IMG/VR virus record: IMGVR_UViG_2531839666_000021
Location: 1 to 10,930 of that record
Length of the DNA stretch: 10,930 nt
Reading direction: 5' to 3' (one strand)
Origin: a virus
Lineage: Duplodnaviria > Heunggongvirae > Uroviricota > Caudoviricetes
Position numbers and translations under genes: made by a program. Under the pieces are notes generated by a model. The model was not told where the DNA came from. It saw only the letters and a program-made list of their open reading frames with translations, and ran no database searches. Shown piece by piece: positions 1-7,901 of this stretch (its first letter is position 1; every line of letters starts with the position of its first letter).

Positions 1-2087
1 ATGTTTGCTTCAGTTAAAGAGCTGGTTGGATTACCGGGAATGCCGGGAACGGAGCAAGGCGTCCGCTATTCAATCAGGAAGTATGCAACCAGCGAAACCA
101 GCAGACGCCGCCAGGAAGGCAGTAAAGGTTTTGAATACAGCATCGACTGTTTACCTGAAGTGACGCAGCAGGCATTACGTGAACGCTACGCCCTGCAACT
201 GATGACTCAAAAAGTCGATGAATCACCGGCTCCAGTGGTGACAAAGGCCAGACGCTCGCCTGCCGTGGTTGATGCGGTGGAGGCATATCGCGGATCACCA
301 CAACTGATGGTTGAACGCCTTAATGCCCTGACCGAAAAACAGCGTCAGGTGGCTGATGCACGCATTGCGATTGTCAGCGAGGTGCTGAAATTCGCGCAAC
401 AACCCGGTTTCAGCTGCGCTAAAGCCATCCGTTTTATCGTTGACCGCCTGTCACGCTCACAACTGGACGAGCGCATTGTGGCAATGGTTGAGACGGCGAA
501 CGCCAAAAAGGGAAACCGACGAGCGTTGAGTGAAATCACGCTGAAACGCTGGATTGCGGCCTTTAACAAGGCACAGAACGCCGCTGAACGCCTGCTTTTA
601 CTGGCACCGGGTAAACGCCAGGAAATAAAAGCCGAAGATATTAACTGGCTGCCCGATTTTCTGGCGCAGTATCGCCAGTCAAACGGCCGACCAATGACCG
701 AGGCTTACGAGGATTTTGTTGCCGAATGGCAGCACCGGCACGCTGATGAGCCTTATATGCTCGATATCATGCCGTCTTACGACACCATCCGCCGCGCAAT
801 GAAGAAACTGCCGGAAGTGGTGAAACAAAAAGGCCGGGTGACAGGCAGTGAATACCGTCAGCTTGAGGGATTCACGCGCCGCGACTGGTCAAAAATGCCG
901 GTGAATTATGTCTGGATTGGTGACGGTCACGGCATGAAGCTGAAATGCGCACACCCGGTTCACGGTCGGCCATTTGCACCGGAAGTGACCTTTGTTATCG
1001 ACGGTGGCACGCGCTTTGTGGTGGGCTGGAGCCTTGACCTGGCTGAAAATGTTTTCGCCGTAGCCGGTGCCATACAGCACGGCATTCGCCATCACGGCAA
1101 ACGTTTCTGTATTACTCGGATAACGGCTCCGGGGAAACCGCCGACATCCTGGATAAGGAGGTTGTGGGGATACTGCCGCGACTGGGGATTAATCACCCGA
1201 CCGGGATTGCCGGTAATCCGCAGGGACGAGGCATTATCGAACGGCTTAACCGCACATTACCGATGCGCATAGCCCGTAAATACCGCACCTATTTCGGGAA
1301 AGGTGCAGATCGCGAGACGTTACGCAAAACCAACCGCGATTTACGCTCGGCATTTACTGCCCTGCAACAGGGCAAACGGCTGAACGCCCGGCAGCAGTCA
1401 GCGATGCGTGATTTACCGTCCTGGTCTGAACTGATTGATGCCATTCGTGACGGTGTTGAGTGGTACAACAACCGGCCGCACGATGAATTACCGGTGAAGC
1501 CGAACGGCAAGCATTACAGCCCGGCGGAGTTCAGAAAAAAACGCCTGGCGGAAGAGGACACGGAAATTGAATGGCTGTCCGATGTTGAGCTGCGGGATAT
1601 GTTCCGGCCGATGGTGGAACGCCCTGTAAGACGCTGTGAAATACGCTGGCTGAATAATATTTACTACGCGCCCGAGCTGCGTGATGAGCATGGCCGCAAG
1701 GTGCTTATCAGCTATGACATTCATGATGCCGAACGAATTACCGTACGTCGCCTGGATGGCAGCGTGATTTGCGAGGCGGTATGGGACGGTAATAAACGCG
1801 AAGCCTTCCCGGTTAGCGCGGAATACTACAAACAGCAGCAACGCCTTAAAGGCATGCGTAAACGCGCAGAGGAAAAAATCCGTGATGCCGAGGATGAGGT
1901 TGTCAACGTGCTGGAGCACAAGCCGCAGGAGCCCTGGCTGGAAAACATCTATCGCCCGGTAGGTAATACGGTGGCCGTTCAGCAACCTGCCGTTGATGAT
2001 GAGCCTGATGAAGAATACGAGCGCAATTTCCAGCGGGGATTGCAGTTGCTCGAAGCGAAATTAAAAGAAAATGACCCGCTGGCCTGA
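1..2087 (+). CDS. Mu-type DDE transposase (MuA-like); reading frame interrupted by a 1-bp frameshift near 1087-1091 (pseudogene or sequencing indel)
   Basis: Frame-1 ORF 1-1272 plus frame-3 reading open from 1047 (track ORF 1164-2087, GTG). N-terminus MFASVKELVGLPGMPGT resembles the MuA N-terminal region. Candidate DDE residues are split across frames: VWIGDGHG (frame 1), YYSDNGSGE (frame 3, about 1110-1136), GIIERLNRTL (frame 3). C-terminal RLDGSVICEA...EYYKQQQRLK resembles the MuA C-terminal domain. Frame switch is required between HGI (1078-1086) and PSRQ (1089-1100). Confidence 0.85.
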
Positions 2088-2157
2088 AATAAAAAATAAC
2101 CCGAGCGGCGACTCAGGTTATTTGATTAAACAAGGTATCAAATGAGAGGTTAATAAT

Positions 2158-3091
2158 ATGACTGATATTAACGATGTAATCAAGACCATTGATGAACTTA
2201 TTGATGGCGGCGTACTGACGCAGTATGCCATCGCCAGAGAGGCGGGAATTTCCGACGGCACATTATCGGCTTTCCGCAAGGGGAAATATAAAGGCGATAA
2301 CGCCGCTGTGGCTGCTTCCCTGCGTTCCTGGTATGAGAACTGGAATAAACAAAGCGCACTGCCGGAACCGCCGCAGTTTGTGGAAACGCAGACAGTTCAG
2401 GAGCTGCGCGCACTGTTTCAGGCGGTTCGCCTGATGGGCTGTATTAACGTCATTGTGGGCGTGCCGGGGGTAGGTAAAAACGGCCACCGCCCGTAATTAC
2501 TGCCAGGAGCAACCAAACACCTGGATGATCACCCTGTCACCCGCGCACTCCAGCGTCACGGAGTGTCTGCTGGAGCTGGCCGATGCGCTGGGGATTGATT
2601 ACACCCGCGCGAACAAAGGGGCATTATCCCGCGCCATCCGCCGTCGCCTGATGGGAACGCGTGGACTGGTGATTGTGGATGAGGCGGATCATCTTGGTAT
2701 TGACGGTCTGGAGCAACTCCGGGCAATTCAGGACGCCACGGGGATCGGGATGGTGCTTATTGGTAACCCGCGCGGATTGTTTAAAGGTGGACGCCGCGCC
2801 TTTGATGATTTATCGCGCCTGTTCAGCCGTCTTGCCCGTACAAAACAACTTCGCAAGGCCAAAAAGGCGGATGTGCTGGCCATTGCCAGGGCATGGGGTA
2901 TCAGTGGTGAGGCCGAGCTGGCCGTCATGCAGGCTATCGCTGAAAAGCCGGGAGCGTTACGCGTTCTGACACATACGCTTAACCAGGCGTGGCTCACCGC
3001 CAGCGGTGAAGGTGCGGCGCTGACAGAAAAACATATTAATGCGGCCTTTAAAGAGGTTTATACCAACCCTGAATTACTCTCACAGGTGTGA
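2158..3091 (+). CDS. MuB-like AAA+ ATPase (transposition target-DNA activator B); frameshifted at A5 run 2476-2480
   Basis: RBS GAGAGG 2144-2149, ATG 2158. Frame-1 ORF 2158-2496 ends GVPGVGK-NGHRP*; frame 2 continues KTATARNY...WMITLSP to stop at 3091. The joined product has Walker A GVPGVGKT and Walker B LVIVDEADHL and resembles MuB over its N-terminus and core. Confidence 0.85.
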
Positions 3092-3315
3092 TTATGGCGG
3101 TATTTTATATTCCTGATATTTACGGACGCTTTTACCTGGTTAATTTCGATAACGTGAAGGTGATTTCACTGGCCGAAAATAAAGAATGTGGCGATTTACT
3201 TTTTGAATTTAATGACCGCACACGAATGGTGATATCTGCCGGACTTGATCGCGAAGGTGCGACAGAAGTTTACAGCGGAATATGCCGTTCTGTTGGTGCG
3301 AAACAAGTCAGCTAA
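3088..3315 (+). CDS. small hypothetical protein (73-75 aa) immediately downstream of B; occupies the position of kil in Mu
   Basis: ORF with GTG 3088 or ATG 3094, overlapping the B stop (3089-3091); AGGTG at 3084-3088. No recognisable motif; the Kil suggestion is positional only. Confidence 0.5.
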   Translation: MIMAVFYIPDIYGRFYLVNFDNVKVISLAENKECGDLLFEFNDRTRMVISAGLDREGATEVYSGICRSVGAKQVS

Positions 3316-3327
3316 ATGAGGTGTTAT

Positions 3328-3429
3328 ATGAATATGCAATCCTGCGGTAACAAAATGAATTTATTCGACTCCCTGAACAGCGCGCGCCGTCTGACCGAAC
3401 TTGCCGGTGCGGTACTGGAAACGCAGTAA
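3328..3429 (+). CDS. very small hypothetical ORF (33 aa)
   Basis: ATG 3328 preceded by GAGGTG 3318-3323; product MNMQSCGNKMNLFDSLNSARRLTELAGAVLETQ. May be part of a longer frameshifted gene together with the frame-2 reading 3377-3580. Confidence 0.3.
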   Translation: MNMQSCGNKMNLFDSLNSARRLTELAGAVLETQ

Positions 3430-3581
3430 GCGCTACCACACGTTTTGCACTGAAACCACGCCGCCGGTAGGCAACGTGCAGGGAACCGGTGAAATTGAAA
3501 TCACCATACAGACCAACGGCCTGCGCCGCCGTGTGAAGGCCACCCGCATCAGCGGCTGCACGGTTTACTGGGAGGTGTGAG

Positions 3582-3863
3582 GTGAAAAAAAATCTCATTG
3601 CATGGGCGTGGTCGAGTGGTCTTATTGAGTTTGGTTACGTCCTGCCGGAAGGTGCATTGCCGATAGTTGCCGGAAAGCCTGCCACGGTACGGCATGTGAT
3701 TGAGGTTATGGCGCGTCATGGACGTGATGAACAGGAGCAGTTACTGGTTCCGGGGATACCGGAAGCGGTGACGGAGGAAGAAGCCTTTAATGCCATGATT
3801 CGGTTCTGCCGTGAGGTCAGACGCCGGGTCAGTTATCCAAACAGAACGAGGACCAGAGGATGA
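3582..3863 (+). CDS. hypothetical protein (93 aa)
   Basis: GTG 3582 with GGAGG 3571-3575 at a 6-nt spacer; stop overlaps the next start (ATGA at 3860-3863). Confidence 0.55.
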   Translation: MKKNLIAWAWSSGLIEFGYVLPEGALPIVAGKPATVRHVIEVMARHGRDEQEQLLVPGIPEAVTEEEAFNAMIRFCREVRRRVSYPNRTRTRG

Positions 3864-4132
3864 GTAAAGTCGTACGCATTATTTTCGAATACAAGGAGCA
3901 CGTTATCCATAAAAACGCTGATGGAACAGTGCGCATGGGGGTAAGTCTGGACATACGTTCAACCGGGATAAAGCAGAAAGGTGATGGACCCGCCATGATT
4001 TTTGGAGTGGTTATGCTCGCGGAAAGCAGAGACTTTGCTGAACTTGTGGCAATGAAAGCCAGAGCGCTCATGAAAGATATGAACATGAGTTCCGGGGTTA
4101 TTAAAGGTAATGAATTTAATCAGCAGGGGTAA
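3860..4132 (+). CDS. hypothetical protein (90 aa), member of a tandem paralog pair
   Basis: ATG 3860 in an ATGA overlap with the upstream stop; RBS AGAGG 3855-3859. N-terminus MSKVVRIIFEYKEH is shared with the next ORF. Confidence 0.55.
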   Translation: MSKVVRIIFEYKEHVIHKNADGTVRMGVSLDIRSTGIKQKGDGPAMIFGVVMLAESRDFAELVAMKARALMKDMNMSSGVIKGNEFNQQG

Positions 4133-4136
4133 TTCC

Positions 4137-4430
4137 ATGAGCAAAGTACGCGTTATTTTTGAATTTGAGCATGTTTCGCATGACGAAAAACCGGCAGGCA
4201 ATGACAGTGTTGAAGTGCATGAAAAGATTGGAGTGGATGTGAAAACAGAACGTGATACGGATAACAGGCCGACGTCACTCTGTGACGTTTATGCAAGCAT
4301 TCTCCAGTATCACAGTCCTGTAATTATTCAGTTTCTCTCAGCGGAATTTCAGGCATCTGTACAGGCTTTTGGGGCGGATGCCATCATTAAACGCCACCGC
4401 GTGCATAAAGCATCAGGCACACTGCAATAA
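4137..4430 (+). CDS. hypothetical protein (97 aa), paralog of 3860-4132
   Basis: ATG 4137 (the track ORF starts at 4110, but ATG 4137 follows the upstream stop at 4130-4132 and a G-rich RBS 4126-4129). N-terminus MSKVRVIFEFEH. Confidence 0.55.
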   Translation: MSKVRVIFEFEHVSHDEKPAGNDSVEVHEKIGVDVKTERDTDNRPTSLCDVYASILQYHSPVIIQFLSAEFQASVQAFGADAIIKRHRVHKASGTLQ

Positions 4431-4440
4431 GGAAAACAAA

Positions 4441-4970
4441 ATGGCTAAACGTGTTACAAAATTAAAGGCCGCAGCCGAGGCTGCACCGCAGACCCGTGAA
4501 GAGGTCAGCCGCGATATCCGCACCCTGGGCGATATTCAGCGAGAGGCGCTGCGCCTGGAAACAGCGATGAATGATGAAGTGGCAGAAATCACCGCCCGTT
4601 ATACGCCGCAGATTGAAAACCTTAAAAAGAAATCAAAGTGCTTTTTAAGGGGATTCAGGACTGGTGCAAAACCAACCGTGATGAGCTGACGAACGGCGGC
4701 AAAACCAAAACTGCCAATCTGACCACCGGAACGGTGTCATGGCGACTGGGGAATCCATCATGCAGCGTCAGTCGTGATGTGGAAGGTGTGATTGAAATGC
4801 TGCGCCGTATGGGGCTTGAGCGATTCATCCGCACGAAAGAGGAAGTGAACAAGGAAGCCGTCCTGGCGGAGCCGGATGCGGTGAAAGGCATTGCCGGTAT
4901 AAAGGTGAATAAAGGCGCTGAAAGTTTTTATGTCGAGCCTTTTGAACAGGACGCCGGACTGAATAAATAA
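4441..4970 (+). CDS. gam: host-nuclease inhibitor protein Gam (Mu Gam family); frameshifted near 4624-4629
   Basis: RBS AAGGA 4429-4433, ATG 4441. Frame-1 part MAKRVTKLKAAAEA...LRLETAMNDEVAEIT and frame-3 part (from 4626) KEIKVLFKGIQDWCKTNRDELTNGGKTKTANL...FIRTKEEVNKEA...PFEQDAGL both match the Mu Gam pattern as I recall it; the join requires one extra base in the A5/G run 4624-4629. Confidence 0.85.
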
Positions 4971-5067
4971 CACCACATTAAATCTTTAAATATCACATCG
5001 TTTTAATTATGGCGCTCGCGTCAGGGGACTGCCTGCGCCTGAAAGCTGAAAATAAGGAATCGGAAAC

Positions 5068-5610
5068 ATGGCATATTTTTATTTCAAATTAGACATAGTG
5101 TACACAAATAAATATTTCACCGAATATCAGCGGGATGTTTTACCGCTACGCAACAGTATTCTTCGGGCATTACTGAAAAATACAGGCGCTGCCGGATTGC
5201 GCTTAAAGCCGTTCGCCATGGACGTAATCAGTGAGTTTTATTTTTCTGGTTCTCTGCCTGCGGGCTGGCGTAAGCGCGATGATGTGGCTTTTATCGGGGA
5301 CGGACCGTGCTTTATTGCCAGACCTGATGAGTTATGCCCTGAAGGACCGGCGATTGCCGCAATGGTTGAAGCCGCTGAACGCGATTTAAGAAAGCATCCT
5401 GATTTCCTTGTCTGGCTCTGTGAAAAGCTGGGGGTAATGAGAATCCCCTCCATGTTTAACACGGACTCCTGGTGGACCCCTTCGTTCTCCCGTGATGCCC
5501 TGTGCGTGGTGTTTAAAGTGGGCGCTTATGGCAGGGAAATAAACGGGTGTATTCCTGAAGAATGCCAGGAAATTAAACATTCTGAATATGTGGCGCTGAC
5601 GGAGGAATAA
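5068..5610 (+). CDS. hypothetical protein (180 aa)
   Basis: ATG 5068 with AAGGA 5054-5058; strongly AT-rich 5' end; no recognisable motif. Confidence 0.5.
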   Translation: MAYFYFKLDIVYTNKYFTEYQRDVLPLRNSILRALLKNTGAAGLRLKPFAMDVISEFYFSGSLPAGWRKRDDVAFIGDGPCFIARPDELCPEGPAIAAMVEAAERDLRKHPDFLVWLCEKLGVMRIPSMFNTDSWWTPSFSRDALCVVFKVGAYGREINGCIPEECQEIKHSEYVALTEE

Positions 5611-5620
5611 TTCATGATTG

Positions 5621-6145
5621 ATGCAAAAGTGCTTGAGGGTTAAAAACTGGCTGCGTATTTACGGACGTCTGACCTGCGGCATTCTGGCTGAAAAAATGAA
5701 TATGCCGCCATCCTCGATGGTTTATTTTCTGCGTGATGCGGTCGATGCCGGGGTGCTGACGGAATGTAACGGTTTTTATGATATTCCGCGTCCCCGCCCG
5801 GTGCAGCCGGTTCGTCGCAAATGCAGCCAGGAAGGTGCGGCTGATGATGTTCAGTGGTGCAGCTTCAGAAAGTCCCTGCCGTGGATTGAGGGGCATGATA
5901 TTCCGTCGATGGCGTGGGAATTTGCTCAGGGCGTACTGACCTGCGAAACCGTTTATGTGGTGGCTGAAGTTGATGAGCAGGCCATGAAAGAAGGTGTACC
6001 CCAGTTTGTGATGGCGTATATCGACATACGCCTGGGTGTCATTATCTGCGGTTTAAGCGGCTGGAATATCACCGGACATGTTCTGCGTTACCTGATTGTT
6101 GACCGGACGGCTGCACCTGCCGGGATATCTGCGGAGGTGGCGTAA
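5621..6145 (+). CDS. hypothetical protein (about 174 aa) with a possible winged-helix-like N-terminus
   Basis: Frame-3 ORF, TTG 5618 or ATG 5621. N-terminal segment LRIYGRLTCGILAEKMNMPPSSMVYFLRDAVDAGVLTE looks HTH-like. The start is uncertain (see finding on the SD at 5601-5606). Confidence 0.5.
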   Translation: MQKCLRVKNWLRIYGRLTCGILAEKMNMPPSSMVYFLRDAVDAGVLTECNGFYDIPRPRPVQPVRRKCSQEGAADDVQWCSFRKSLPWIEGHDIPSMAWEFAQGVLTCETVYVVAEVDEQAMKEGVPQFVMAYIDIRLGVIICGLSGWNITGHVLRYLIVDRTAAPAGISAEVA

Positions 6146-6663: not shown

Positions 6664-7215
6664 ATGATGATTTTACAACCCATGGGGAGAAAAGGCCGTG
6701 CACCCGCTCATGTCCGTGCGTGGACACCTGAAGAAGATGCACTGCTGATTGCGCTTTATCCATCCACCCCGGTTAAGGATATTGCTGTCAGGGTAAAAAG
6801 AAGTTTCTGGGGTGTACATAACCGGATTGTTTTATTACGCGGTACTTACCCGGAGTTGCTCAAATGCAAACGTCCAAGATTTAAACATGATGAAGATAAA
6901 TTTATCCGAAAAAATGCCAGAACGATGACCGGTAAGCAAATAGGAGAATATCTGGGGCGAGACCGGGATTCTGTCCACAAACGGGCGCGATATATTGGCG
7001 TAAGCATGAAAAAATACGGAGAGTTGCTGCCCTTCACCCGTATACCTGATGATGATGTTCATCTTATTCGTGAATTACGGGATGCTGAATCACCACGACG
7101 TCTTACCTTCCGGGAAATAGGCGAGAAATTTGAATTATCCGAGAGTACGGTGAATTTTATTTATCACCATCGCCGGACTGCCGAAGATGTTGTATTACGG
7201 GAGTTAATGCCATGA
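6664..7215 (+). CDS. putative DNA-binding protein with repeated Myb/SANT-like or GcrA-like HTH motifs
   Basis: RBS GGGGG 6654-6658, ATG 6664. Motifs AWTPEEDALLIALY, MTGKQIGEYLGRDRDSVHKRARYIGVS and LTFREIGEKFELSESTVNFIYHHRR. First gene of the AT-rich island. Confidence 0.55.
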   Translation: MMILQPMGRKGRAPAHVRAWTPEEDALLIALYPSTPVKDIAVRVKRSFWGVHNRIVLLRGTYPELLKCKRPRFKHDEDKFIRKNARTMTGKQIGEYLGRDRDSVHKRARYIGVSMKKYGELLPFTRIPDDDVHLIRELRDAESPRRLTFREIGEKFELSESTVNFIYHHRRTAEDVVLRELMP

Positions 7216-7427
7216 TAACGACATTATTTGTTGAATCAGACGAGCCTCTGGTATGTGCCGCCGGAATGTCGGTTTGTGGCGGAACGCTGACCGGTGTTTA
7301 TTTCGGGGATTTGCGCGGTTATCCCTGGCATTCACTGGATGACGCATTTCCGCCTGATATGGAGGCAGTCGTGCTGATTGTTCAGTATGGTGCAACAGGA
7401 ACTGCGCATCGGCCATATGGGGTATGA
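7212..7427 (+). CDS. hypothetical protein (71 aa as given; probably 103 aa, 7212-7521, if one G is removed from the G4 run at 7419-7422)
   Basis: ATG 7212 in an ATGA overlap with the upstream stop. Frame 1 continues from about 7417 to the stop at 7519-7521, which would create an ATGA overlap with ATG 7518. Confidence 0.45.
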   Translation: MITTLFVESDEPLVCAAGMSVCGGTLTGVYFGDLRGYPWHSLDDAFPPDMEAVVLIVQYGATGTAHRPYGV

Positions 7428-7493
7428 AGGCTTTTTTATTGATGAAGAAACCGGAGCCTGCCTTGAAGATGAGGACGGACAGGTGACGCACTG

Positions 7494-7901
7494 GTGCCAT
7501 ATTTCAGCTTTACCGGAATGACGGGAGGTGAATGCGTGAGAAGTTATATTGATAATGAAAAACTGAAGACAATCAGCGACTGTCTTAGCTTGCTGGCAAA
7601 AATAAAAGAAACCATTGAAGAGATTAAATTTCAGCTTGAATACGCACCCTGTGGTGATGATACATGGCGTAACTCTGCCAGAAAAGCACTGGCTGTCTTT
7701 CAGAAACAACGCCGGACTGTTGAATACCGCCTTGCTGTATTACGCCAGGAGGAAAAGGAAAGAAATATAAGATGTCACGAGCGCGTTAATAACTTCCTTG
7801 TTCGTGAATTAAAGAACGTGTGCCGGAGTCGGTATTTTTTGAGTGTGAGGCTGTTGCCCGTAGCAAAGCACTGGAAACTGATTAAACAGGCAGGTGAATG
7901 A
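7494..7901 (+). CDS. hypothetical protein, predicted coiled-coil-rich (122-135 aa depending on start)
   Basis: Frame-3 ORF; candidate starts GTG 7494 (SD AGGTGA 7481-7486), ATG 7518 (ATGA coupling if the upstream frameshift is corrected) or GTG 7536 (SD GGGAGG 7523-7528). AT-rich. Confidence 0.5.
   Translation: MPYFSFTGMTGGECVRSYIDNEKLKTISDCLSLLAKIKETIEEIKFQLEYAPCGDDTWRNSARKALAVFQKQRRTVEYRLAVLRQEEKERNIRCHERVNNFLVRELKNVCRSRYFLSVRLLPVAKHWKLIKQAGE

Follow-up and report, generated by a model that had tools for sequence, protein, structure and literature searches.

Is the MuB gene of this Mu-like phage truly interrupted, or was the interruption introduced when its sequence was produced? The question is raised by a stretch of 10,930 nucleotides from IMG/VR record IMGVR_UViG_2531839666_000021 (hereafter, the window), in which the first-pass annotation noticed that one additional A in a run of five breaks the Walker A motif of a MuB homologue. 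According to that annotation, deleting a single A would give back the canonical P-loop GVPGVGKT, followed by the rest of the ATPase.

The run of five adenines (A5), read directly from the sequence, occupies exactly positions 2476-2480, inside ...GGGGGTAGGTAAAAACGGCC..., and bases 2460-2499, run included, are CGTGCCGGGGGTAGGTAAAAACGGCCACCGCCCGTAATTA. Translation from the ATG at 2158, which is preceded by a GAGAGG Shine-Dalgarno sequence, gives in frame 1 ...VIVGVPGVGKNGHRP and ends at the stop codon 2494-2496; the terminal stretch of this ORF, as translated to 2496, is ...CINVIVGVPGVGKNGHRP, and the C-terminal end of its 112-aa product is GVPGVGKNGHRP, the stop following in each case. Frame 2 reads (V)KTATARNYCQEQPNTWMITLSP... 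and stays open up to 3091, so the run splits the two frames just as had been claimed. The alignment to Mu B places the lesion between the Walker A lysine and threonine codons: the lysine codon (AAA, 2476-2478) encodes K107, the counterpart of Mu B K106, while the threonine codon of T108 (ACG, 2480-2482) is shifted out of frame by the extra A. In the same alignment, the 112-aa N-terminal ORF matches residues 3-106 of Mu B.

What remains of the gene after this point is separated from its P-loop. The Walker B motif (VIVDEADH, 2669-2692) lies in a different frame from Walker A as the sequence is written, and the Phage-MuB_C domain follows at 2825-3055. Judged from the sequence, the P-loop threonine and everything downstream of it would be lost from the N-terminal product. 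The earliest start codon in frame 2 is the ATG at 2525, which opens a 188-aa ORF (2525-3091) from which the P-loop is absent, and the sole Shine-Dalgarno-like element there is an AGGAG located 15 nt 5' of this ATG, a poor spacing; separate expression of the two halves is thus unsupported. From the established biochemistry of AAA+ proteins, neither piece could be a working ATPase. No single ORF holds both an intact GxxGxGKT Walker A and a Walker B as written, and both are found together, in a continuous ORF of 310 aa, once one A is removed.

The repaired protein leaves little doubt about the identity of the gene. It is 100% identical over its 310 aa to ECs_4946 from the Mu-like prophage Sp18 of E. 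coli O157:H7 Sakai, where it is annotated as a 'DNA transposition protein' (NP_312973.1), and equivalents of ECs_4946 are labelled 'AAA family ATPase' in other RefSeq E. coli records. The Sakai gene is also identical at the nucleotide level, with 0 substitutions, apart from the extra A: Sp18 has four adenines (A4) where the window has A5. The exact repaired protein is encoded in 14 fetched loci as well. Residues 4-302 align with residues 3-302 of phage Mu B (PDB 8xvb; E=2.7e-84, about 48% identity), a full-length match, and a tblastn search against phage Mu (AF083977) gave 48.3% identity over 96% of the query. In addition, residues 223-299 score 88.6 bits against PF09077 (Phage-MuB_C), for which the cut-off is 25 bits, and residues 98-207 score 66.4 bits against the Pfam family AAA_22. 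In the alignment, Walker A GVPGVGKT (residues 101-108) pairs with GNPGVGKT of Mu, and Walker B VIVDEADH (residues 171-178) pairs with VIIDEADH.

Homology to phage Mu B (PDB 8xvb, 1f6v and 2mqk) extends over the full length, and the two proteins have in common the GxPGVGKT and (I/V)DEADHL motifs and the Phage-MuB_C domain. They also share their genomic position, as both are encoded immediately downstream of MuA; the 8xvb entry bears the name 'ATP-dependent target DNA activator B'. The window gene differs from Mu B in being interrupted, as written, after the Walker A lysine, and it represents an orthologue from a diverged Mu-like lineage rather than Mu itself. MuB adjoins the downstream side of MuA, the position expected in a Mu-like early operon, and is followed by Kil-like, Gam, Gp11/Gp12-family, GemA, Mor, lysozyme, endopeptidase and LysC genes; the order in Sakai Sp18 is the same (MuA, MuB, Kil-like, Gam, ..., GemA, Mor, lysozyme). 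The window is the early region (transposition, semi-essential and lysis genes) of an E. coli Sp18-type Mu-like prophage, with its MuB orthologue at positions 2158-3091; the predicted role of this AAA+ ATPase is to form polymers on target DNA and to activate MuA, the transposase. MuB is already known, as are Sp18-type prophages and null alleles of MuB.

As to its gene, its place and its repair, then, the lesion is as the first-pass annotation described it. What did not hold is the view of the break as a feature of MuB, since about 14 other private small indels break nine further genes in the window, a pattern that points to an artefact of sequence quality. The alignment to Sakai Sp18 contains many single-base indels beyond MuB, and 10 of the 22 window genes are broken (MuA, MuB, Kil-like, Gam, Gp11_C, hyp103, hyp116, hyp98, GemA and LysC; Table 1). 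MuA, which encodes a protein of 694-696 aa in all relatives, is split into ORFs at 1-1272 and 1164-2087. The changes in the Kil-like gene are the gain of an A at 3419, the loss of a C and an A at 3437-3440 and the loss of an A at 3452, a net change of -2, and an intergenic T5 is shortened to T4 at 9239. The cluster in the Kil-like gene (3419-3452) resembles a low-quality stretch.

Table 1. Features of the window and its private changes (positions counted from the first base of the window)
Feature	Position	Strand	Observation
MuA transposase	1..2087	+	Private CC->C at 1101/1102; premature stop at codon 424 of 695
N-terminal ORF of the split MuB	2158..2496	+	112 aa; N-terminal domain and truncated Walker A, ending GVPGVGK-NGHRP*
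Walker A / P-loop codons, GVPGVGK(+A)T	2458..2482	+	From the sequence and the Mu B alignment
A5 run	2476..2480	+	A4 in all relatives; one-base insertion causing the frameshift
MuB remainder, frame 2	2480..3091	+	Rest of the AAA+ domain and Phage-MuB_C
Kil-like	3328..3580	+	Four private indels in a 35-base stretch; stop at codon 34 of 84
Gam	4441..4970	+	A6->A5 at 4623/4624; stop at codon 83 of 176
Gp11_C-family	5614..6145	+	2-base deletion at 5636/5637; stop at codon 10 of 177
hyp103 and hyp116 (two small genes)	7212..7885	+	2-base deletion at 7392; 1-base deletion at 7813
hyp98 and GemA/gp16	8413..9240	+	-A at 8696 in hyp98; +T at 8982 and -A at 9195 in GemA
LysC (Rz1-like)	10703..10930	+	Private 1-base deletion at 10886; gene runs off the window end
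Private inserted bases (3)	2476, 3419, 8982		
Private deleted bases (14)	1101; 3437 (two); 3452; 4623; 5636 (two); 7392 (two); 7813; 8696; 9195; 9239; 10886		
Private substitutions (9 genuine)			5 synonymous, 4 non-synonymous

Changes were called private by comparison with a panel of 17-18 close relatives aligned with MAFFT, made up of four complete E. coli genomes, Sakai, three contigs found through the 188-aa product and 10 contigs found through a 180-aa protein that is intact in the window and that they encode exactly. By this measure the window carries 17 private indel bases in about 15 events, mostly changes in homopolymer length. Every one of the 17-18 relatives has 0 private small indels, despite having 0 to 122 private substitutions each. 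Private small indels thus exceed private substitutions in the window, hit many genes, and are found in none of the relatives. The roughly 14 further indels in nine more genes argue that the extra A is an indel error of a low-accuracy assembly and that MuB is probably intact in the organism, a reading to which we give a probability of roughly four in five (0.78). On this account, about 15 small indel errors (roughly 1.5 per kb), mostly homopolymer miscalls with a bias towards deletion, would have arisen during sequencing or consensus calling, and the real gene would have A4, an intact GVPGVGKT P-loop and a 310-aa product identical to Sakai ECs_4946.

The main competitor of this explanation is a biological one, namely that the window belongs to a decaying, immobilised Mu-like element in which slip-strand frameshifts have inactivated MuB, MuA, Gam, GemA and other genes. 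The domestication of prophages through loss of their replication and transposition genes is well known, and such a loss here would fix the prophage at its site and abolish the lethal transposition-replication pathway. O157 strains are described as having a pool of defective prophages (PMC2669165), and natural indels likewise favour runs and deletions (PMC6330053). The spectrum of private changes, however, is far from what such decay would predict, with 15 indel events against 9 substitutions where an indel to substitution ratio of about 1:10 is expected. In mutation-accumulation lines of E. coli, substitutions outnumber indels by 10-12:1 (PMC6330053, table 1); at that ratio, the probability that 15 or more of the 24 private events would be indels is about 1e-10, and it is still only 7e-6 at a ratio of 4:1. 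Moreover, several of the broken genes have 0 substitutions against their relatives: substitutions and indels relative to the nearest relative number 0 and 1 in MuB (Sakai), 0 and 2 in hyp103, 0 and 1 in hyp116, and 0 and 1 in LysC. The four indels within 35 bases of the Kil-like gene (3419-3452) also speak against decay, as such a cluster has a probability of about 1e-4 for 15 uniformly placed events, and so does the count of 0 private small indels in each of the 17-18 relatives.

Decay also usually leaves other marks. Nonsense mutations, IS insertions and larger deletions are its usual company in prophages, and none of the three is present in the window. Five of the nine private substitutions are synonymous, too few sites to decide on ongoing selection. 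Of the 14 deleted bases, 13 belong to runs of two or more, compared with 48% of all bases (P about 5e-4). This association with homopolymers and the bias towards deletions were nevertheless dropped as a means of discriminating between error and slippage, because both processes show them. Weighing these points, we consider a genuinely decayed prophage an unlikely explanation, though one that retains some weight, and we infer that the indels are technical rather than biological.

If the A5 allele were real, it could be expected to be shared with other isolates. We searched for it in several collections and it was absent from E. coli complete genomes, GTDB, IMG/VR and JGI. Of 234 matching records from E. 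coli complete genomes, the best 30 listed, all full-length matches, align at 99.9% and with one base fewer than the query (1050 vs 1051). A 65-base probe spanning the A5 site had no perfect match among 106 matched places in the E. coli complete genomes. A pattern scan for A4 or A5 returned 0 matches in the GTDB representative genomes and three in IMG/VR, all of them A4, and a degenerate pattern specific for A5 returned 0 matches in the JGI metagenomes. When a second copy of the A5 allele was sought in plasmids (PLSDB, query 900-4800) and in phages (INPHARED, query 2100-3150), the best matches were 98.3% and 97.6%, respectively.

The products of the broken genes are similarly rare. A collection of 153 billion gene positions contains no exact copy of the 112-aa, 116-aa, 71-aa or 97-aa broken product, so that four of the five broken products tested are absent from it despite the very dense sampling of E. 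coli, a further point against decay; the 180-aa product that is intact in the window appears in 130 of its blocks. The exception is the 82-aa Gam fragment generated by the A6->A5 change at 4623, which also occurs in two assemblies unrelated to each other, GCA_033723935.1 (L028) and Logan SRR018270 (L029), at positions 2001-2530 in both loci. Over 767 bases, 17-19 substitutions separate these loci from the window; they represent a different haplotype and have none of the other indels in common with it, so the Gam frameshift does not mark a common ancestor with the window. The presence of the same slip on a different haplotype indicates that such slips can recur, biologically or technically, and the Gam change is a recurrent event, which could be either, at the longest A-run involved. 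Its recurrence in two other assemblies counts in favour of a decaying element and against sequencing error. L028 carries several more private 1-base indels of its own.

A second argument against sequencing error is that MuB null alleles do occur in nature, and the independent inactivations seen in other assemblies also lend support to decay. We found W122* (TGG->TAG) in L002, at about position 9998 of that locus, Q116* in L003 (about 9980), Q118* in L004 (about 7410) and a 1-base deletion of a G in L007 (about 340), just before the P-loop. In all four, as in the window, the lesion lies within about 20 codons of the P-loop and leaves the 188-aa ORF from M123. The resemblance ends there: unlike the window, all four have A4, three of the four lesions are substitutions, and no second lesion is visible in any of these prophages, the remaining genes of which are full length. 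That the genuine nulls of L002, L003 and L004 are single lesions among full-length genes favours the artefact explanation for the window, with its ten broken genes. These alleles were found through the 188-aa product, and it is this choice of query, an ascertainment effect, that makes them cluster near the P-loop; we rejected for this reason the idea that the region is a mutation hotspot.

It is also tempting to ask whether A5 might have a function. It could act as a slippery site, either because tRNA-Lys slips by +1 on A-AAA-A or through slip-strand switching between A4 and A5, and either mechanism would tune the level of MuB or yield separate N- and C-terminal products. By inspection of the sequence, ...GKT... 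would be restored exactly if the P-site tRNA-Lys moved by +1, from AAA at 2476-2478 to AAA at 2477-2479. Five adenines, however, make a short run for transcriptional slippage, and the codon that follows, AAC, is neither a hungry nor a stop codon. All the relatives examined carry A4 in a single uninterrupted 310-aa ORF, and the two-frame architecture is therefore not conserved. The start available to a separate C-terminal product, at 2525, has only the distant AGGAG already described, and it is not possible for all of the other roughly 14 indels of the window to be sites of recoding. Since neither A5 nor the split gene is conserved, a programmed frameshift is effectively excluded, and we regard a functional slippery site, whether for tuning MuB or for producing two proteins, as highly improbable. 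The same very low likelihood attaches to a genuine A5 that would work as a leaky knock-down, with low amounts of full-length MuB made by the +1 slip, or as a reversible A4/A5 switch silencing transposition.

The value of recognising indel errors in this record is that of a quality flag, since annotators would otherwise call ten genes pseudogenes and describe an apparently active Mu-like phage as defective. Other single-base frameshifts reported from the window, and probably those from its source as well, should be treated likewise. If the lesion were true instead, it would amount to the ordinary inactivation of a well-known gene for which null alleles already exist in other strains.

The family to which the window belongs appears to be an active one. 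Sp18 has been described as predicted intact and inducible (PMC2669165), and the relatives are located at many different chromosomal sites (see also PMC7430833); together, these observations indicate that the family is an active transposing phage that needs both MuA and MuB, a point in favour of indel error in the window. In L002-L004 and L018-L027, the prophage is flanked in each strain by entirely different host genes, which is consistent with active transposition of the Mu type.

Two further observations concern the structure of these prophages. The window has a mosaic structure: its identity to any one relative is only 97-98.5%, and patches at 333-858 and 5042-5520 match only some relatives. 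The cassette at 7218-7886 (hyp103 and hyp116) is present in the window and in most relatives and absent from Sakai Sp18, which has in its place a shorter stretch with a 61-aa ORF, ECs_5772. Finally, five draft assemblies contain a contig (L005, L006, L008, L009 and L010) that starts 0-2 bases before the ATG of MuB M123, and this recurrent break point possibly reflects the divergence of two copies of a Mu-like prophage within one genome.
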